Positions 14,923 through 64,000 of a DNA stretch of 64,000 nt are shown in pieces; the stretch's first letter is position 1; each line of letters opens with the position of its first letter. The notes under the pieces are model-generated. The model saw nothing but the letters and a program-made list of their open reading frames with translations, had not been told where the DNA came from and did not search any database. The position numbers were made by a program, and so were the translations under genes. The stretch is from Escherichia phage vB_EcoM_IME537, in the sequence record NC_054921.1, one strand, 5' to 3'.

Positions 14923-14947
14923 TTCAATATCCTCATTTGCTCAATTA

Positions 14948-14977
14948 ATTATACCACATCCTTGTGGTAAAGTAAAC
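14948..14977 (-). promoter_or_regulatory. T4-type early promoter
   Basis: - strand GTTTACTTTACCACAAGGATGTGGTATAAT; core nearly identical to the promoter at 61710-61739. Confidence 0.65.
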
Positions 14978-26805: not shown

Positions 26806-26835
26806 ATTATACCATACTCATTTTGGAAAGTAAAC
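26806..26835 (-). promoter_or_regulatory. T4-type early promoter
   Basis: - strand GTTTACTTTCCAAAATGAGTATGGTATAAT. Confidence 0.6.
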
Positions 26836-55685: not shown

Positions 55686-56711
55686 CGCAAATTCATGCCC
55701 GTTTATATGAAACAACAAAATTTGGATAGTCCATAGATATGCAACGTTCTTTTATAGTGCTAGGATGAAAATTTAGCGCTTTAGCTGCTTCTATATAAGA
55801 CGTATACTTAATACCGTCAACAACCACATATTCAGGAACTTTATGAATAGTAGTCTTAATACTCAAAACAAGAGGATGAGTTTCGACTTCACTTTCAGTG
55901 CAATTTAAATATTCCGCTGCTTTTTTAAAACTTCTAAAAGTTTTATTTTTAAGCTTTATCGATACTTGTTTTTTACTTTTTCGACTATTGATATTATTTT
56001 GCACATGTTCCTTAGATCTTCCGTTTTTAGCATAATATTCAGCTACAGAAGATTTTATATTGTTTTTATGAGATTCGGATAACACTTTACCCTTATGAGC
56101 ATCTCTTAATTTTTGAATATGTTCTTCAGTATCCGGATGCTTATAAAACTTTTTACCGCCTATGGATTTATTTAAACATTTTTTGCTATAAAAATATTTA
56201 CGTATGACCTCTTCTTCATGTTTTAATGCATCTTTATAACTATCAAATGTTTTTAAAATTATCCATTTAGTAGGTGTATCAGTTTTTAAGCGTTCATTTA
56301 TATACTTAGATGACGTTGTGTAAGTTTTCCAGTTTGTGGGCTTGTTTTTAATTGTTCTAAATTTTTTATAACCGATATAAATGTCGCCATTAGAAAACTT
56401 AACTAAGTATGTAAATGCGTCTTTATCTTTTATTTTAGTACAACGTCTTTTTATCCATTTCATTGTTTCACCTCGTATTCATAAGATAATCTTATTTATA
56501 CAAGATGACTGCTGCATGTCGCCATGCAGATTAGACTATATCTTCATCTTTCGATGCCGGCCGTTTCGAATAGCATTAGCTTCTATTCTACACCGCTACA
56601 TTCATCACGGTTAGTCGTTAGGCATTTAGTTCAAAAGAACATTTAGCACGGGATTGTCTACTAGAGAGGTTCCCCGTTTAGACCGGTTTTACATGAGCCT
56701 GAATTAAATTA
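55686..56711 (-). mobile_element. Group I self-splicing intron in nrdD (sunY-type) with homing endonuclease ORF; boundaries approximate
   Basis: About 1.03 kb interruption of an otherwise colinear nrdD; structured non-coding 5' core of about 240 nt (56464-56711) followed by an endonuclease ORF that ends a few nt before exon 2. Confidence 0.7.
55693..56463 (-). CDS. Intron-encoded GIY-YIG-like homing endonuclease (I-TevII-like)
   Basis: 256 aa; N-terminal ..FTYLVKFSNGDIYIGYKKF.. GIY-YIG-like motif, basic C-terminal DNA-binding region; GAGGTGA RBS; sits in the 3' part of the intron. Confidence 0.6.
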   Translation of the reverse strand: MKWIKRRCTKIKDKDAFTYLVKFSNGDIYIGYKKFRTIKNKPTNWKTYTTSSKYINERLKTDTPTKWIILKTFDSYKDALKHEEEVIRKYFYSKKCLNKSIGGKKFYKHPDTEEHIQKLRDAHKGKVLSESHKNNIKSSVAEYYAKNGRSKEHVQNNINSRKSKKQVSIKLKNKTFRSFKKAAEYLNCTESEVETHPLVLSIKTTIHKVPEYVVVDGIKYTSYIEAAKALNFHPSTIKERCISMDYPNFVVSYKRA

Positions 56712-57249
56712 ACTCATAAGCTTGGAATGCATCGTATACGTCTTTTTCTGTTTTAGATTGGGCATAATTCAATGCATCAGCGATTTGCCATTTTTCTGCA
56801 TCCTCAATATGTTTTGCATAGGTGCGTTTAACATAAGGAGAAAGTACTTTATCTACATTCGCAAAAGTCGTTCCGCCATATTGATGAGAAGCAACCTGCG
56901 CAGTAATTTGTGCCATAATTGCAGTAGCAACGCCAATTGATTTAGGAGTTTCAATCTGCGCATTACCAAGCTTAAATCCGTTCTCAAGCATTCCTTTTAA
57001 ATCTACTAAACAACAATTAGTAAATGGAAGAGCAGGGGAATAATCAATATCGTGGAAATGGATAATTCCGCTTTCATGCGCTTTCATAATAAAAGACGGG
57101 ACCATATTTTTGGCAATGTGTTTAGACACAATACCAGCCATAAGGTCCCGTTGAGTTGGAAAAACACGAGAATCTTTATTAGCATTCTCGTTTAAAAGGT
57201 CTTTATTAGTTTTATGAATCAATCCTTCAATTTCTTTTTCAATTGTCAT
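56712..57249 (-). CDS. nrdD: Anaerobic ribonucleotide reductase NrdD, exon 1 (N-terminal part); 3' boundary approximate
   Basis: MTIEKEIEGLIHKTNKDLLNENANKDSRVFPTQRDLMAGIVSKH.. matches the T4 NrdD N-terminus as recalled; the frame ends in a stop just inside the intron. Confidence 0.8.
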
Positions 57250-57719
57250 TTTAAACTCTTTCTAAGCTGCTTCTTAAATGAAGCTATTAATTGTGTTTTG
57301 GTGTCAGATTCATTATATTCAAATCCTCTTTGAAGCATCTCAGCTATCATTTCCTCTTTTCCTAAACGAGAAAATTCCTTTGATTTATCTCCAACAAAGT
57401 TAGGGTGAATATTATTTTGGGTGTAATCGGATTTTAAATAAGTAAGTAAATTTTCTAACCATTCAAGATAATCAACGCCTTGTCCCTTTAAGCCAGAACG
57501 ATTAAATTTGTGCTTCATTTGACCTTCCGCAGCATTGCAGAGATTACAGAGCAATCCACGTACCTTTCCTGCTTTTGGTCCATTTAATTCATGGTCATGG
57601 TCAAGGTGATTAGCTTGAACATCAGGATTTAGTTCTCGTTGGCAAATTAAGCATTTACCGTTTTGTGCATTATAAAATTTTTGTTTTTCTTCTTTGTATA
57701 ATTTGCCAGTCAATAACAT
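57246..57719 (-). CDS. 49: Endonuclease VII gp49 (Holliday junction resolvase)
   Basis: 157 aa; zinc-binding CxxC..CxxC and His-Me finger HLDHDH motif; same size as T4 gp49. Confidence 0.9.
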   Translation of the reverse strand: MLLTGKLYKEEKQKFYNAQNGKCLICQRELNPDVQANHLDHDHELNGPKAGKVRGLLCNLCNAAEGQMKHKFNRSGLKGQGVDYLEWLENLLTYLKSDYTQNNIHPNFVGDKSKEFSRLGKEEMIAEMLQRGFEYNESDTKTQLIASFKKQLRKSLK

Positions 57720-57761
57720 AATAAAACCCTTACCTTGAATAGATAAGGGTATTTATTATTT

Positions 57762-57938
57762 TCAAGTATTGTAAAACATTCGATGCAATCGCTTATATTG
57801 TCGAATCATCTTTTTAGTAGGACGAGAATAAGTTCCTACACAAGTGGTCATATTAGGGTCAGTAGGACTTCCTTTAATAAAAAGTTTCCAGACTTTACCA
57901 CCATTTAGCTTTTCAGTATAAATCAATTCAGTTTTCAT
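57762..57938 (-). CDS. Small hypothetical protein (58 aa)
   Basis: Hand-translated MKTELIYTEKLNGGKVWKLFIKGSPTDPNMTTCVGTYSRPTKKMIRQYKRLHRMFYNT; start overlaps upstream stop (TAATG). Confidence 0.4.
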   Translation of the reverse strand: MKTELIYTEKLNGGKVWKLFIKGSPTDPNMTTCVGTYSRPTKKMIRQYKRLHRMFYNT

Positions 57939-58402
57939 TAGAATGGCCTATCAGAAAAAGAAATTTGAGTTTCAAGCCATTCAATATATTCTGCCGCAGC
58001 TTGCATCAAATTTCCTTCATAACCATCGTTGTTTTCTTGCGCAGCTAATTTAGCTAATGCATATGAAATGCGTTCACCCTGAAAAGCGGCTTTAGGTTTA
58101 TGAATAGCTTGATCAACTCGTTCTACAACTTCTTCAATTTCGCCATTTTCTACTGATTCAGTATTCCACAAGCACCAATACGTAATTGGCTTATCATAGA
58201 TGTTAATAACCTTTCCGTCAGAAAGTTCAATTTCAATAATTCCAGTATCAGGTTCTATGTCATCTTCACATTCTTTTACAAGTTCACGAACTTTAAAGAC
58301 AGTACCTGCACTAAGTTCCGGCCAGTAATTACACAGCCCCTTATCAGCACGATTAATTCTAAACCACTTATCTACTGTAATCATGTCCCATCTCCATATC
58401 AA
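57938..58402 (-). CDS. Hypothetical protein
   Basis: 154 aa. Confidence 0.5.
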   Translation of the reverse strand: MIWRWDMITVDKWFRINRADKGLCNYWPELSAGTVFKVRELVKECEDDIEPDTGIIEIELSDGKVINIYDKPITYWCLWNTESVENGEIEEVVERVDQAIHKPKAAFQGERISYALAKLAAQENNDGYEGNLMQAAAEYIEWLETQISFSDRPF

Positions 58403-58506
58403 TTATGTCATTTATTGTAGGTTCATTATATACTGTTTCTTCATCAGTGTAAACCGGTTCTTCCGGCTCTGGCTCTACAGTTTCCCATCTAACCGCCCAC
58501 CAAGGT

Positions 58507-58716
58507 TTAACCCCGAAGCTTATTAAGTTCTTCATAATCAATCCAGGATTCTAGTCCTGATGGCAAATCATATTCAATTTCCCAAAGAAGTTCTTCAATT
58601 TTCTGAAGACGATCTAATTCTTCAGCTGGAATAGTAACCATTGACGGAGTTCTTGATACATTAATATCGTAAATCATATTTACCCCAGTTTGACCATACA
58701 ATCGCCGTATTTCCAT
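58507..58716 (-). CDS. Hypothetical protein
   Basis: 69 aa. Confidence 0.45.
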   Translation of the reverse strand: MEIRRLYGQTGVNMIYDINVSRTPSMVTIPAEELDRLQKIEELLWEIEYDLPSGLESWIDYEELNKLRG

Positions 58717-58895
58717 TTAGAAATAGACTTTTCACCGTTAGAATAATAAACTTCGAGTTTAGCACGGTTATTTTTAATTTGAATAATCTTTGCTGTCATC
58801 AAAGTTCCATATCCATAATAAACTGCAACTTCATCACCTACATATACCGCGCTTCCGCGGTAGTCATGGATATAATCAGTTCCTTCGAGCATCAT
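58680..58895 (-). CDS. Hypothetical protein
   Basis: 71 aa. Confidence 0.45.
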   Translation of the reverse strand: MMLEGTDYIHDYRGSAVYVGDEVAVYYGYGTLMTAKIIQIKNNRAKLEVYYSNGEKSISKWKYGDCMVKLG

Positions 58896-59155
58896 TTGAA
58901 GTATTCCCGCAATTGGTCAAATCCACCAATATGACTTCCATCAGGAGCAAATACCTGAGGCATCGTCAATCCGATTTGAGTATCACGACCTAGTTTAGTC
59001 AGAAGCTCAGCAATTTTCTCATCATCAAAAACACCTTTTTCCGGCATAATGTTGATAAATTCAAACGGCTGTTTCTTCACGGTCAAAAGACGTTTTGCAT
59101 TATCACAATACACGCATTTATGAATGTTGCTATCATAACCATATACTTTAAACAT
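58892..59155 (-). CDS. nrdC: Glutaredoxin-like thioredoxin NrdC
   Basis: 87 aa; CVYC active site; matches T4 NrdC as recalled. Confidence 0.85.
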   Translation of the reverse strand: MFKVYGYDSNIHKCVYCDNAKRLLTVKKQPFEFINIMPEKGVFDDEKIAELLTKLGRDTQIGLTMPQVFAPDGSHIGGFDQLREYFK

Positions 59156-59223
59156 ATTATTCCTTAATTCCTAATACTTGTTTAAAAGTCTCGTCGTAAT
59201 CAAGACTTTGGCCCGTTTGTTCT

Positions 59224-59445
59224 TTATGTTTGTATAATATCACTTACTTCTGATAGCATATTTTTATATGAACGAGTTAAAGCTGATTTAAGCACGCTGT
59301 ATCTATCAGGAAATTTACCATGTTCATTATAATAAGCTATTGCTAATTCACGGACTGCCTTTTCAGCAGTCTCCATATATTCTTTACGCTTTGTCATTTT
59401 CTTCTCGGTCAAATCGATGTTTACAATGACGACATTTATATTCAA
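59224..59445 (-). CDS. Hypothetical protein
   Basis: 73 aa. Confidence 0.4.
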
Positions 59446-59701
59446 GCTCTGGTTTACGCCAGTTAATCAATTGGACCTGTTCAGTACCACATTTTGGGCA
59501 GTTCGGAACATTCTTAGAAGCCCTTTCGCGGCGTTCAACCATAACCATAATGGCATCCCAAGCAGGAGGTTTAAAGTCTAGATCGTCACAGCCATGAATC
59601 TTTCCACGCATTTCTAAATCGTCTTCTTCACCAGCCATAATAATTTTAATTAGACTGGAATTACTTGAAGCTGCAATATCTTCTAATAAGCGCTTTTTCA
59701 T
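59384..59701 (-). CDS. Hypothetical zinc-ribbon protein
   Basis: 105 aa; ..NCPKCGTEQ..(16)..CRHCKHRF.. CxxC-CxxC. Confidence 0.45.
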
Positions 59702-60627
59702 TTCAATACCTCAATAGCATTACGTAAACCATTTGCTTTGGCAGTTAAAGCCTTAAGAACTTTAGTATGCTCTTCAATCTGTTTTTCAACTTCAATTAAG
59801 CGTGTATTAAGATATTCGCGTTCTTCACTCAGGTTATCAATCTTTTCTACTTTAGGTTCTTTTACAACTGGCTTATATGTATTAGGGTTCTTCAGTTTAA
59901 TTAGAATGCGTGAACTGTATAACATTGAACCATTATCTTCGGTTTCGTCATACATTTCCACTACGTCCATCATCTCCACCATCGTGCAGAGTTTATAAGA
60001 CAACGAACGAATAGTTTTGTTATGCTTATTAATTTCTCTAGCTGTCATGGTGCCGAGATTACGTGAGTAATAATAAGGAACCTGGATATTAATTAATACT
60101 GATGAACCACCTGGCTTGTGTGTTACTTCATCAGCAATAACCCAGTCCTTAACATGAACTGTATTTGTACGGTCATCGCCCGCGGTAAATAGTTTACGAG
60201 CATGCTTAAAAAGCATATTCACTTGGTCATTGAATTGACAAGCGAATTTATCAGCAAATTTAGTTTCAGGAATGGTAGATAACCAATCAGCCAAATGGGT
60301 CTTTTTAACATCGTTAACAATAGTAAATTCAACCAAATCGGTTATAGATGTCGCAGATTTAATGAAGCTCGGCTTCATAAAGTTTTTAATGTTATCACTA
60401 GCTACAGTAGAAGATAACAGACGAGAACGTTTAAACCATTGAAGCAAATTGCCTAACGAATGAGAATAAGCGTTTTGAGTATCTTTACAGATATGATTTT
60501 CCTGGCCAACATATTGAAAGAAATCACGAAGAATATTATTGATTACTGCTCTGTGCCCAATCTGATAATTACGGTGTTTAGTAATAAGACTATCAAAATA
60601 ATCAATATAATGTTTACGAGTTTTCAT
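59698..60627 (-). CDS. Hypothetical protein, member 1 of tandem paralog family with C-terminal coiled coil
   Basis: 309 aa; starts MKTRKHYIDYF..; C-terminal heptad-rich ..[41 protein letters not shown]. Confidence 0.55.
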   Translation of the reverse strand: MKTRKHYIDYFDSLITKHRNYQIGHRAVINNILRDFFQYVGQENHICKDTQNAYSHSLGNLLQWFKRSRLLSSTVASDNIKNFMKPSFIKSATSITDLVEFTIVNDVKKTHLADWLSTIPETKFADKFACQFNDQVNMLFKHARKLFTAGDDRTNTVHVKDWVIADEVTHKPGGSSVLINIQVPYYYSRNLGTMTAREINKHNKTIRSLSYKLCTMVEMMDVVEMYDETEDNGSMLYSSRILIKLKNPNTYKPVVKEPKVEKIDNLSEEREYLNTRLIEVEKQIEEHTKVLKALTAKANGLRNAIEVLK

Positions 60628-60679
60628 GTTCTTCTCACTTGGTTAATGATTTATACTCCGAGCCATCCTTGGCTTTAAA

Positions 60680-61711
60680 TTACTTAATTAACTGTAAAGC
60701 TTGTTCAAGACGATCCAGGCGATTAACAGATTCTTCCCAAATCCTTTTAGCCTGCTCATATTCTTTCTGTGCTTTATTAGAAATTTCTAGAACTTCTTTA
60801 TAAGCTTTTTCTAGTGCAATAACTTCTGGACGAATTTCTACCGGTTCAAGTGAATCATCAAGACATTCCATTAGTTCCTCAAGGGTAGTTTCTTCTTTAG
60901 GAGTATTCACAATTTCATCACATTTTTGTTGGTAAATTTCTTTATCAGTCGGTGAGTACGCGCACTTTACTTCACGGAGACTAACTACAATTTTATATCC
61001 TTCCCAACCGCACATATTCTTAAAAGGATAAGTATGAATATTTTCTACCGTTTCCATACAAAATAATGCAGTCTCTAATTGACGAGTTATATCACTAGCA
61101 ATTGAGAAAAATTTATTAATGTTCTTTTGATTAGCTTCTGGTGTAAAAAATCCATAATTCACAAAAATAGCTGCTTTATTTTTATCAAGTTCATATTCTT
61201 TTATGATAATCATGTCAGAAGCCCAAGGATGAATTTGACGATAATCACCATAGCATAATTTAGAAGCTGATTTTAGAATTTGCTTTTTGAAAAGTCTGAA
61301 ATTACTAATCCAACGACGAGTAAAAATATTCTCAGGGTCTTCTTTATTATTAAGATGATAAGAATTAACATCACCGAACCAATTATATCCTACTACATCT
61401 TTGGTTCGTTTAATTTCTTTCCCAAAATTACCAAGAATATCCTGATTAACTAAATATGAAAGAAGACGAGAACCTTTAAAGGTTTCCTTAATATCACCTT
61501 TATCTTCGCGACTAGAAATTTTATGAACTTCATGAATAAATTTGCTGGAAGAAACAATGCTTACATCAATATTATTGAGCCATTGATTGATAATGGAAAT
61601 AACGTTATTCTGACTAGACATAGGTTTAACTTTATCATCAATAACGCTATTAAATGATTTGATATATTCGTTACGAGTCATATTAATCTCCTCAGTAGAA
61701 AGTAAGAACAT
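60680..61711 (-). CDS. Hypothetical protein, member 2 of tandem paralog family
   Basis: 343 aa (likely start at internal MTRNEYIKSF..); mid-region ..RRWISNFRLFKKQILKSASKL..; coiled-coil C-terminus. Confidence 0.55.
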   Translation of the reverse strand: MFLLSTEEINMTRNEYIKSFNSVIDDKVKPMSSQNNVISIINQWLNNIDVSIVSSSKFIHEVHKISSREDKGDIKETFKGSRLLSYLVNQDILGNFGKEIKRTKDVVGYNWFGDVNSYHLNNKEDPENIFTRRWISNFRLFKKQILKSASKLCYGDYRQIHPWASDMIIIKEYELDKNKAAIFVNYGFFTPEANQKNINKFFSIASDITRQLETALFCMETVENIHTYPFKNMCGWEGYKIVVSLREVKCAYSPTDKEIYQQKCDEIVNTPKEETTLEELMECLDDSLEPVEIRPEVIALEKAYKEVLEISNKAQKEYEQAKRIWEESVNRLDRLEQALQLIK

Positions 61712-61739
61712 TATACCACATCCTTGTGGTAAAGTAAAC
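61710..61739 (-). promoter_or_regulatory. T4-type early promoter
   Basis: - strand GTTTACTTTACCACAAGGATGTGGTATAAT; same core as the promoter at 14948-14977. Confidence 0.65.
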
Positions 61740-62761
61740 TAGTTCAGTGCATTTAGTGCATTGTTCAGTTTAGAACGTTGCTTCGTGAGATTTTTGACTT
61801 TTTCTTGAGCTTTTTCTAGCATCTTTTCAGCTTCTAGCACTTCATTAGTTGCTTTAACGAGTTCATCATCTACTGCCTTGATAGACTTCTCAATCGCATC
61901 TGCATGCCATTTTTCAACAGGTTTAAGACTCGGATTTTCAATAGGAAGAAAATTCACTTTATTGAATTTCCATGCATCTTTATTACCTGAACTATACATC
62001 CAAAATTTAGGATCGTTTGATGAGTAATTGGATAAATTTAAGTTATCTTGCACTTCCTGCTTTTTCTCTTGTGTGACTTCGTCCTTTCTCAAAAAATCGT
62101 ATTTAAATGAAACGATCATATCAAGTTCATATGTTGTTGTATGTTCCCAATTTCGCTCAAAATGAGGTAAAATCTTAGACTGAACAGCGGCAACAACATC
62201 CATATACTTAAATGCTTCTGTTAACTGCGATTTAAGGCATTCACAAATTGAAAGAGAATTTTTTGTATTAGGTTTAAAGCTAATTCGTGCAGTTCTATTA
62301 TTTTCTTTTAATGGTCTTACTTCCATCTGAAGAGTATAACCATCAAATTTCAGATTCTTTAAGTTAATATCAGAACCTTTTAATCGACTCGCAGTTGATA
62401 AAATTTGTTTTAATTGTTTACGGAATAGAGCAATAAATCTCCATTCAATACGATAATGATTTGGATTGAAAAATCCAGATGATAAATCGACCTTACTTTG
62501 ACCGACGCCTTGAACAAATAGAGGATTTTTATAATCAATAGTTTTACAGAAATCGGTGAGCTGCTCACGAGCCGTCATTTGCGTAATATACCCTGCTTCG
62601 CTAAAATTACGCACCCATTCACCGCTATTCGTATACTTAAAGTGATGAATAACACGATTAACTTTATCAGGGTCTAAATTATTTTCACACAAAAATGTCA
62701 TAACATCACGGGTATAGCTGGCATTACGAACCATATCTTCAATTTGAGAACGAGTTTTCAT
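61739..62761 (-). CDS. Hypothetical protein, member 3 of tandem paralog family
   Basis: 340 aa; starts MKTRSQIEDMV..; mid-region ..RIEWRFIALFRKQLKQILSTASRL..; coiled-coil C-terminus. Confidence 0.55.
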   Translation of the reverse strand: MKTRSQIEDMVRNASYTRDVMTFLCENNLDPDKVNRVIHHFKYTNSGEWVRNFSEAGYITQMTAREQLTDFCKTIDYKNPLFVQGVGQSKVDLSSGFFNPNHYRIEWRFIALFRKQLKQILSTASRLKGSDINLKNLKFDGYTLQMEVRPLKENNRTARISFKPNTKNSLSICECLKSQLTEAFKYMDVVAAVQSKILPHFERNWEHTTTYELDMIVSFKYDFLRKDEVTQEKKQEVQDNLNLSNYSSNDPKFWMYSSGNKDAWKFNKVNFLPIENPSLKPVEKWHADAIEKSIKAVDDELVKATNEVLEAEKMLEKAQEKVKNLTKQRSKLNNALNALN

Positions 62762-62769
62762 GGTGTTCC

Positions 62770-63693
62770 TTAAGATTTAAGTAAATCAACAATTTTAATT
62801 AACTTTTCACGCTCAGATTTAGCTTTACTACTCAATCCAGATAGTCTGAAAATTTCATCATCATATTGCTGAATAGAAATATTTAGCTCTTCAATTTGCT
62901 TATTAAAATAATCAATTTGTTCAGAATGTTTTTCGTTACTACGAACTGGTACAGGTTTTGTAGGCAATTTAGTTGAACTGGATTCATCCGGGCGATAAAT
63001 TAAAATACAACTTGAACCAATCGGACATTTAGCACCAGACACATATTCTAATGTTCCGGCTTCTTTTAAAACTTCAAAAGCTAAACAGAGATGATGACCC
63101 ATATTGGCATAATCTGTAGAGTGAGCTCTGATGTAATAATCATCTCCACGAGTACTAAATTTAAAGCATTTAAGGTCTTCTGTATTATTGGTCTTAAAAA
63201 TCATTTGTTTATCTAGACCTTTAGCTAATCGAGCGCCTAATGCTAATAATCGTCGTTGATTTTTCCACAAATCCGCAATCATTTGATCGAATGATAATTT
63301 TGGCATTAGTCGACCATAAAGGTCATATCCTTTATTATAATTACGAAGGATTTCACTCGCATTAATGCGAGACAACGCTCCAATTTTATTAAGGGCTTTC
63401 ATAATGCGTTTAGATAAAAGCATTCCAGACCCGTTTGGTCGCTGTAAATGTTTTTCTAATCCAAATCCAATATCAACTTTAAACTTATCTAAAATTTCGG
63501 CATGAACATCTTTATCAATAACATTCAAATCCAAAGTTGGGTTAAATCTATGAAAAAATTTATCTGGCTCTCCACGACGAAGTACAGTCCATTCATTTGA
63601 TTTTTTATTAACTAAAGATTTAATTACTGCATTGACATTATTAATTGCTACTGACATATTTTCCTCACTCAATTTCAATTTTACTAAATACAC
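62770..63693 (-). CDS. Hypothetical protein, probable member 4 of tandem paralog family
   Basis: 307 aa; mid-region ..ADLWKNQRRLLALGARLAKGL..; coiled-coil C-terminus. Confidence 0.5.
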   Translation of the reverse strand: MYLVKLKLSEENMSVAINNVNAVIKSLVNKKSNEWTVLRRGEPDKFFHRFNPTLDLNVIDKDVHAEILDKFKVDIGFGLEKHLQRPNGSGMLLSKRIMKALNKIGALSRINASEILRNYNKGYDLYGRLMPKLSFDQMIADLWKNQRRLLALGARLAKGLDKQMIFKTNNTEDLKCFKFSTRGDDYYIRAHSTDYANMGHHLCLAFEVLKEAGTLEYVSGAKCPIGSSCILIYRPDESSSTKLPTKPVPVRSNEKHSEQIDYFNKQIEELNISIQQYDDEIFRLSGLSSKAKSEREKLIKIVDLLKS

Positions 63694-63982
63694 AGAATAT
63701 GATTGAACAGACTACATAAGCACCGCACACAGATTGAACTAATACCATCCCAAAGAACCAAACAATATTATCAAACAGTGTCTGTTTTACGTCGAAAGGA
63801 CGTAAACTTACAGTAATATTATCACCTTTTTCTATTGAAGAATACATCTCTGGGGAAATATATTCACTAAATCTATAACCGTCTTTGAGTTCATATACAG
63901 CAATAAACGATAAACTAGACCCTTTTCCTTGTGTTCCTGTAATGGTATTAACTACAGTAACATCATAATCTTTATAATGCAT
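63665..63982 (-). CDS. Hypothetical protein with C-terminal TM segment
   Basis: 105 aa; hydrophobic C-terminus (IVWFFGMVLVQSVCGAYVVCSIIFCVF). Confidence 0.45.
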   Translation of the reverse strand: MHYKDYDVTVVNTITGTQGKGSSLSFIAVYELKDGYRFSEYISPEMYSSIEKGDNITVSLRPFDVKQTLFDNIVWFFGMVLVQSVCGAYVVCSIIFCVFSKIEIE

Positions 63983-64000
63983 ATAATCATTAATTGCGTA

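Follow-up and report, generated by a model that had tools for sequence, protein, structure and literature searches.

An array of diverged coiled-coil proteins, T4 nrdC.3 to nrdC.6, in Escherichia phage vB_EcoM_IME537 includes the orthologue of an anti-Dsr1 gene

Introduction

T4 is the best-studied phage, and about half of its genes are without a function. Here we analyse four neighbouring genes of a T4 relative, the orthologues of T4 nrdC.3, nrdC.4, nrdC.5 and nrdC.6, which lie in tandem in a 64,000-nucleotide stretch of the Escherichia phage vB_EcoM_IME537 genome (NC_054921.1; this whole stretch is referred to below as the window). The closest described system is T4 nrdC.5. An evolved T4 clone with deletions in accessory regions became unable to infect ECOR17, and deletion of dsr1 in ECOR17 allowed the T4 mutant to infect again; cloned dsr1 protects MG1655 from mutant T4, and expression of T4 nrdC.5 from a plasmid restores plating of the mutant on dsr1+ cells (Srikant, Guegler and Laub, eLife 2022, PMC9391042). 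That study gives no mechanism for nrdC.5 and does not discuss the neighbouring paralogues (PMC9391042). E. coli Dsr1 has a TPR sensor in common with Avs7, and its trigger is the phage major capsid protein (2026 preprint, PMC12803255). A second described case is DSAD1, which these sources present as inhibiting the sirtuin NADase DSR2 by binding its sensor region (PMC11087589, PMC11263360).

Because the nrdC.3–nrdC.6 genes have long been known and one of them has a published anti-defence phenotype, the array is not a new kind of system. A literature search on nrdC.3, nrdC.4, nrdC.6, DUF7235 and anti-Dsr1 activity found nothing beyond the 2022 study, and the recognition of a paralogue superfamily appears to be new but incremental.

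Results

The array corresponds to T4 nrdC.3–nrdC.6

The window belongs to a Tequatrovirus. The 3,996-bp stretch that carries the array (59698–63693) is about 93% identical to T4 by megablast and matches 658 phage records, nearly all of them Escherichia, Shigella, Yersinia or Salmonella T-even phages, the closest at 97.7% identity. A first-pass annotation, made by a model from the letters of the DNA, had described four consecutive minus-strand open reading frames (ORFs) at this position and left open whether the family was already known. All four are present, and megablast together with the T4 annotation identifies them as nrdC.3 to nrdC.6, which are labelled hypothetical in the T4 reference record and are distributed over three or four database families.

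ORF A (59698–60627, 309 amino acids) is the nrdC.3 orthologue (phrog_1435, E=1.6e-115; 62.5% identity to T4 nrdC.3). ORF B (60680–61681, 333 amino acids) is the nrdC.4 orthologue and a paralogue of nrdC.3 (phrog_1435, E=3.1e-166; T4 annotation). ORF C (61739–62761, 340 amino acids) is the nrdC.5 orthologue, with 94.4% identity to T4 nrdC.5 and a match to Pfam DUF7235 (PF23882), and ORF D (62770–63657, 295 amino acids; phrog_2257) is the nrdC.6 orthologue and the most divergent member. These four genes, and the features within them given below, are on the minus strand.

The boundaries of nrdC.3 and nrdC.5 agree with the earlier calls, which gave products of 307–343 amino acids, and the MKTR starts of these two genes and the MTRNEY start of nrdC.4 are visible in the translations; the starts of nrdC.4 and nrdC.6 had to be moved, giving shorter products. 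For nrdC.4 the start is the ATG at 61681 (MTRNEY), preceded by the ribosome-binding site GAGGAG, which yields 333 residues as in the T4 annotation. A start at 61711 was rejected because the upstream ATG falls within the −10 hexamer of a promoter. For nrdC.6 the start is the ATG at 63657 (MSVAINN), with the ribosome-binding site GAGGAA, and the PHROG profile match begins at the same point; this 295-residue product replaces a 307-residue ORF with a GTG start.

In T4, nrdC.3–nrdC.6 are flanked by nrdC.2, nrdC.1 and nrdC on one side and by nrdC.7 through nrdC.11 on the other. The array had been placed downstream of nrdC, which is true in plus-strand coordinates only: with every gene on the minus strand, the array, which lies at higher coordinates, precedes nrdC in transcription. 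A comparison with nrdC.10 and nrdC.11 had also been proposed, but the genes are nrdC.3–nrdC.6, and profile and identity comparisons show nrdC.10 and nrdC.11 to be highly conserved and unrelated to the array.

Evidence for paralogy of nrdC.3, nrdC.4 and nrdC.5

Pairwise BLASTP among the four proteins links NrdC.3 and NrdC.4 alone (24% identity over 270 residues, E=4e-8), and the remaining pairs give nothing past weak C-terminal matches. The claim of tandem paralogy therefore cannot rest on pairwise BLASTP. Profile–profile comparison with hhalign joins NrdC.3 to NrdC.4 at 98% (E=1e-13), although with narrow family alignments NrdC.4 and NrdC.5 reach only 21% and NrdC.6 is unlinked. Broader alignments were built by collecting the nrdC neighbourhood from other genera and adding bridging families. 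With these, the combined NrdC.3/NrdC.4 profile aligns with the NrdC.5 family over 247 collinear columns (75%, E=2.5e-5). A bridging family that occupies the same genomic slot in Klebsiella phages Roth76 and Mineola and in Citrobacter phage Merlin aligns with NrdC.3/NrdC.4 at 95.7% and with the NrdC.5 family at 93.9% over 246 columns (hhalign), and its member Mineola_080 matches ORF C by plain BLASTP over 294 columns (E=4e-4). The direct profile match, the bridging-family matches and the Mineola_080 match together indicate that nrdC.3, nrdC.4 and nrdC.5 are homologous, and at the level of sequence comparison the case for their paralogy is solid. The first-pass description of diverged tandem paralogues thus stands firmly for these three genes and, on the profile and structural evidence given below, probably for nrdC.6.

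Gene order supplies further context. The order in Tequatrovirus is nrdC.6, nrdC.5, nrdC.4, nrdC.3; JS98 (Dhakavirus) has an nrdC.6-like, an nrdC.5-like (orf86) and an nrdC.4-like gene, and Mosigvirus has nrdC.6-like, nrdC.5-like and nrdC.3-like genes. As the order nrdC.6–nrdC.5–(nrdC.3 or nrdC.4) is shared by three genera, the conserved unit is a three-gene array, and the T4 group has undergone a further duplication, which gave the nrdC.3/nrdC.4 pair.

Sequence databases treat these proteins separately. In PHROGs, NrdC.3 and NrdC.4 both fall in phrog_1435 over their full length, NrdC.5 in phrog_2351 and NrdC.6 in phrog_2257. ORF C matches Pfam PF23882 over residues 1–340 at 435.8 bits (E=1.2e-130; gathering score 30 bits), and ORFs A, B and D have no match to this family and so lie outside it. 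Newer precomputed Pfam annotation places PF26897 on homologues of NrdC.4 and PF26899 on homologues of NrdC.6. The array is thus filed as three or four separate families of function-unassigned proteins, and joining them into one superfamily appears to be new. This superfamily appears to extend to families from Klebsiella, Citrobacter and Acinetobacter T4-like phages. An exhaustive hidden Markov model (HMM) search of 1.84 billion proteins with the NrdC.3/NrdC.4 profile gave 9 representatives and returned no NrdC.5- or NrdC.6-type proteins. Two sets of candidate relatives were rejected as having no relation to the family: the 262-residue proteins of Merlin, Roth76 and Mineola that are encoded beside the array member, and the 315–330-residue proteins near nrdG in KP15 and EC-F1.

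The proteins share a common architecture

The proteins follow a common design of about 300–340 amino acids, with a helical N-terminal region, then a conserved amphipathic helix, a small core of the form beta-beta-(beta)-alpha-beta-beta, a disordered linker ending in KPV and a C-terminal coiled coil. In the AlphaFold models of NrdC.5 and NrdC.6, N-terminal helices and the motif helix are followed by beta-beta-(beta)-alpha-beta-beta, a disordered linker and a C-terminal helical region, which in NrdC.5 is a long helix. The basic amphipathic motif that the first-pass annotation had noticed in the middle of each protein is found in all four, and hhalign and MAFFT align its copies with one another. 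In NrdC.3 it reads FNDQVNMLFKHARKLFTAGDD (residues 132–152; 60172–60234) and in NrdC.4 FRLFKKQILKSASKLCYGDY (residues 128–147; 61241–61300), both placed by hhalign and MAFFT; in NrdC.5 it reads FRKQLKQILSTASRLKGSD (residues 113–131; 62369–62425), placed by the model and MAFFT, and in NrdC.6 LWKNQRRLLALGARLAKGLD (residues 130–149; 63211–63270), placed by the model together with hhalign and MAFFT.

Aligned jointly with MAFFT, the four proteins and the bridging proteins have five collinear blocks in common. These are an N-terminal TR..YI..F (block 1), F.+SRLLS...A...L.NF (block 2), F..N....IL..A.+L..G.D (block 3, the motif of the earlier reader), the core helix L..QL..A...MDVV (block 4), and (K/E)PV ahead of a coiled coil that ends in L..A...LK (block 5). 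The KPV or EPV is at residues 252, 279, 280 and 234 of NrdC.3, NrdC.4, NrdC.5 and NrdC.6, respectively.

The C termini are rich in heptads, as had been claimed. Scored for a/d heptads against 2,000 shuffles, the last 56 residues have a z value of 3.8 for NrdC.3, 2.8 for NrdC.4, 6.4 for NrdC.5 and 3.8 for NrdC.6; the strongest 42-residue a/d window is at the extreme C terminus in each of the four, and the models of NrdC.5 and NrdC.6 finish in long helices. The coiled-coil segments comprise residues 262–309 of NrdC.3 (59701–59844) and 292–333 of NrdC.4 (60683–60808), both assigned from the heptad score, and residues 281–340 of NrdC.5 (61742–61921; one long helix) and 245–295 of NrdC.6 (62773–62925; helices), assigned from model and heptad score. 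The coiled coil probably makes each protein a dimer or higher oligomer. PDB sequence searches with the four proteins found no relative among solved structures. Scans against Pfam, NCBIfam and PADLOC returned no informative family except DUF7235 for NrdC.5, the sole PADLOC match being a 12.7-bit coiled-coil match of NrdC.4 to BrxC.

Placement of nrdC.6

We regard nrdC.6 as a remote homologue of nrdC.3, nrdC.4 and nrdC.5, a placement that is probable but unproven. An unlikely alternative, although of the competing explanations the one that survives best, is that only nrdC.3, nrdC.4 and nrdC.5 are homologous and that nrdC.6 is unrelated, its likeness in size, position and C-terminal coiled coil having arisen by convergence or by shuffling of the C-terminal module alone. 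Away from that module, a merged profile of NrdC.3/NrdC.4, NrdC.5, the bridging family and one Acinetobacter-phage protein aligns with the NrdC.6 family over 119 columns (65%, E=6e-5). The aligned part is N-terminal and middle (columns 28–167), includes both conserved helices and lies outside the coiled coil, whereas, as controls for the merged profile, four neighbour families that are unrelated but of comparable size reach 0.3% or less (E 0.23–0.68).

Structure comparison also argues for homology. The AlphaFold model of NrdC.6 has a predicted local distance difference test score (pLDDT) of 76 and a predicted template modelling score (pTM) of 0.66. Searched against BFVD with Foldseek, it retrieves its own orthologues first and then function-unassigned proteins of 304–335 amino acids (prob 1.0, E 6e-7 to 6e-4, template modelling (TM) score 0.42–0.48, 12–16% identity) from Pectobacterium phage PM2, Enterobacter phage IME523, Acinetobacter phages fHyAci03 and Acj61, and Klebsiella phage Mineola; these include proteins that are linked by sequence to the other array families. 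The matched Mineola protein has 326 residues and the Acinetobacter-phage proteins 335 and 304, and the bridging protein CPT_Mineola_080 is the sole 326-residue protein in the Mineola region that we retrieved. NrdC.5 and NrdC.6 have the same order of secondary-structure elements in their models, and the gene order kept in three genera is likewise evidence against an unrelated nrdC.6.

Several observations nevertheless weigh against this placement. Compared with each other family singly, NrdC.6 gives an hhalign probability of about 1%, with no significant match to any single family profile, and its BLAST and hhalign signal with NrdC.3 is confined to the C-terminal coiled coil. Pfam and PHROGs both keep NrdC.6 apart as a family of its own. 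The Mineola entry in BFVD is equated with CPT_Mineola_080 on length and position only. The model of NrdC.5 is poor (pLDDT 55), and therefore too poor for a meaningful fold search; the search made with it returned only a protein of Serratia phage CBH8 and none of the other array families. Because a coiled coil joined to a helical domain is a common design, the resemblance could be partly convergent.

An early-type promoter within the array

The promoter that had been noted at 61710–61739 on the minus strand, upstream of nrdC.4, is the top sigma-70-type match in a scan of the region (10/12, with an extended −10 TG). It reads GTTTAC-N15-TGgTATAAT (GTTTACTTTACCACAAGGATGTGGTATAAT), close to the T4 early promoter consensus (GTTTAC, about 15–17 nucleotides, TGnTATAAT), and is found at the same position in all six Tequatrovirus loci retrieved (L001–L004, L007 and L008). 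The pattern GTTTAC-N15-TGnTATAAT occurs 3 times in the 64-kb window, with none expected by chance. We predict that this promoter drives early expression of nrdC.4 and the genes beyond it, and that nrdC.5 and nrdC.6 are transcribed from promoters further upstream.

A twin of the 31-bp promoter sequence (61709–61739, minus strand), with 1 mismatch, is present at 14947–14977 on the same strand, between a 606-residue topoisomerase subunit gene (gene 39-like) and a 67-residue ORF, and accounts for the second megablast match place seen in most phage records. The third promoter of this pattern is at 26806–26835.

Towards lower coordinates, a 256-residue ORF resembling a GIY-YIG homing endonuclease (55693–56463, minus strand) adjoins a 181-residue N-terminal piece of NrdD (56704–57249, minus strand), an arrangement that fits the group I intron of nrdD, and I-TevII, in T4. 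An Rfam scan found no RNA family in 56000–64000.

Distribution and divergence

In enterobacterial T-even phages, nrdC.3–nrdC.6 are non-essential accessory genes that are probably transcribed early. Among 50,697 phage records, nrdC.3 is found in 652, nrdC.4 in 552, nrdC.5 in 580 and nrdC.6 in 740, all of them from enterobacterial T-even phages, compared with 1,402 for NrdC. Across genera the array members are 24–44% identical, as against 62–84% for the adjacent nrdC.10 and nrdC.11. The ratio of non-synonymous to synonymous substitution rates (dN/dS) among close Tequatrovirus relatives is 0.29 for nrdC.3, 0.18 for nrdC.4, 0.19 for nrdC.5 and 0.12 for nrdC.6, and 0.016–0.07 for gp49, NrdC, NrdD, nrdC.8 and nrdC.11. 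These values indicate functional proteins under purifying selection, with a constraint 3–10 times weaker than that on their neighbours.

The nrdC.3 gene here (59698–60627) differs from its T4 counterpart (L001, 6001–6927) by 37.5%, with flanking genes 86–100% identical, which suggests that the allele was replaced through recombination. Database-wide, nrdC.3 falls into three sharply distinct allele classes, one above 90% identity, one near 75% and one near 61%.

Decayed copies are also found. The T4 reference nrdC.6 (275 amino acids; L001 9134–9961, corresponding to NC_000866 52066–52893) is frameshifted near residue 259 and consequently lacks the C-terminal coiled coil, this phage and most relatives having 295–296 amino acids; the nrdC.6 of laboratory T4 may therefore be a partial loss-of-function allele. 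A frameshift splits nrdC.4 into two ORFs in a vB_EcoM_G8-like contig (L002, 6916–7948), and some records (ACG-C40, Manna and Pinarejo) retain only C-terminal fragments of nrdC.3, nrdC.4 or nrdC.6. Separately, near-identical NrdC.3, NrdC.4 and NrdC.5 proteins are deposited as Enterococcus faecalis and Bacillus cereus (entries P0053, P0058, P0091 and P0238), most likely through contamination of those assemblies by T4-like phage rather than because these are true hosts. The nrdC.6 homologue of Shigella phage Sf25 (P0120) has 378 amino acids, about 80 residues more than usual, and may be a fusion or have a mis-called start.

Discussion

The explanation that we favour, with somewhat more than even confidence, is that nrdC.3–nrdC.6 encode diverged paralogues of one design that are likely to act as stoichiometric inhibitors of host immune proteins. 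The first-pass annotation had guessed at host-interaction or anti-defence factors. For nrdC.5 the guess is borne out by the published rescue of T4 on dsr1 cells (PMC9391042), which established that the T4 gene counteracts the Dsr1 sirtuin NADase defence; from the 94.4% identity we infer that ORF C has the same activity. For nrdC.3, nrdC.4 and nrdC.6 an anti-defence role is proposed, and their candidacy fits a family that is narrowly distributed, diverges rapidly, exchanges alleles and often decays.

Stoichiometric inhibition of host immune proteins would be the most likely mode of action of the NrdC.3–NrdC.6 proteins. Dsr1 is a SIR2 NADase that carries a TPR sensor and is triggered by the major capsid protein. 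NrdC.5, as an early product, would bind it before this late protein accumulates, and binding would hold Dsr1 back from sensing or activation. The other paralogues would have diversified against other defence proteins or variants. Direct binding of NrdC.5 to Dsr1 is proposed here, in analogy to DSAD1 and DSR2. Two findings count against the favoured explanation: the published nrdC.5 experiment is a genetic rescue, which demonstrates sufficiency rather than direct binding, and the gene-wide dN/dS values of nrdC.3–nrdC.6, all below 1, give no evidence of positive selection.

The same rescue experiment is compatible with indirect action, through masking or chaperoning of the major capsid protein, altered NAD+ metabolism or remodelling of a host complex, with Dsr1 rescue as a side effect. 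We consider this improbable, while noting that the genomic slot itself has a tie to NAD-related counter-defence: upstream of nrdC, Slopekvirus KP15 (KP15_212; L015, 6422–7855) and Enterobacter phage EC-F1 (L013, 5588–7021) carry a nicotinamide/nicotinate phosphoribosyltransferase (NadV/NAMPT) gene instead of the array. The least probable explanation, that the array is generally unrelated to immunity and encodes dispensable proteins that modulate host physiology or the nucleotide-metabolism cluster of the phage, with nrdC.5 as an exception, fits the position of these genes, which are named by position only, between nrdC and the conserved nrdC.10 and nrdC.11, but Pfam and NCBIfam scans found no similarity of the array proteins to any metabolic family, and narrow distribution, presence or absence, allele replacement and pseudogenisation set these genes apart from conserved metabolic accessory genes such as nrdC.10 and nrdC.11.

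Inhibition of immune proteins by paralogues of one design admits a bolder version, which we offer only tentatively and think doubtful as a whole. The array and its relatives in Klebsiella, Citrobacter, Acinetobacter, Pectobacterium and Enterobacter T4-like phages might form a single superfamily, not recognised before, whose members are modular, oligomeric antagonists of immunity with a fold that has no solved relative. Each paralogue would be matched to its own pattern-recognition defence protein of the host, such as one of the different TPR-sensor proteins of the Dsr1/Avs7 type, and allele swaps such as that of nrdC.3 would re-target specificity and set host range.

nrdC.5 already explains the growth of T4 on a natural E. 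coli isolate that carries Dsr1. If its neighbours do share the scaffold, nrdC.3, nrdC.4 and nrdC.6 would be immediate candidates for inhibitors of other defence systems, and other T4-like genera could be mined for the scaffold. The array would then also be a compact natural system in which to follow the re-targeting of inhibitors by duplication and allele exchange, which bears on host-range prediction for therapeutic T4-like phages.

Comparison with known systems

ORF C is an orthologue of T4 NrdC.5 (DUF7235), at 94.4% identity with a full-length Pfam match and the same position and neighbours, whereas ORFs A, B and D are related to NrdC.5 at the superfamily level only. The Pfam families PF26897 and PF26899 and PHROGs 1435, 2351 and 2257 differ from the grouping proposed here in presenting the array as unrelated families. 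DSAD1 of SPbeta-like phages is a functional analogue, in that it neutralises a SIR2-domain NADase defence protein with a large sensor domain; comparison of the NrdC.3–NrdC.6 proteins with DSAD1 revealed no sequence or fold similarity.

Within T4, the dmd-tifA-adfA anti-toxin island and the internal proteins IPI, IPII and IPIII resemble the array as clustered, non-essential early or accessory genes that each act against one host system and whose loss is without cost in laboratory hosts (PMC9391042). They differ in that their proteins are far smaller and unrelated, and their clusters are not known as paralogue arrays of the nrdC.3–nrdC.6 design. The NARP2-type NadV/NAMPT genes of KP15 and EC-F1 occupy the equivalent slot upstream of nrdC and likewise counter NAD-depleting defences, but they encode enzymes that rebuild NAD+, whereas the NrdC.3–NrdC.6 proteins have no enzyme signature. 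With a NAD-salvage gene in the place of the array in these phages, the position upstream of nrdC may serve T4-like lineages for differing ways of countering NAD-depleting immunity.

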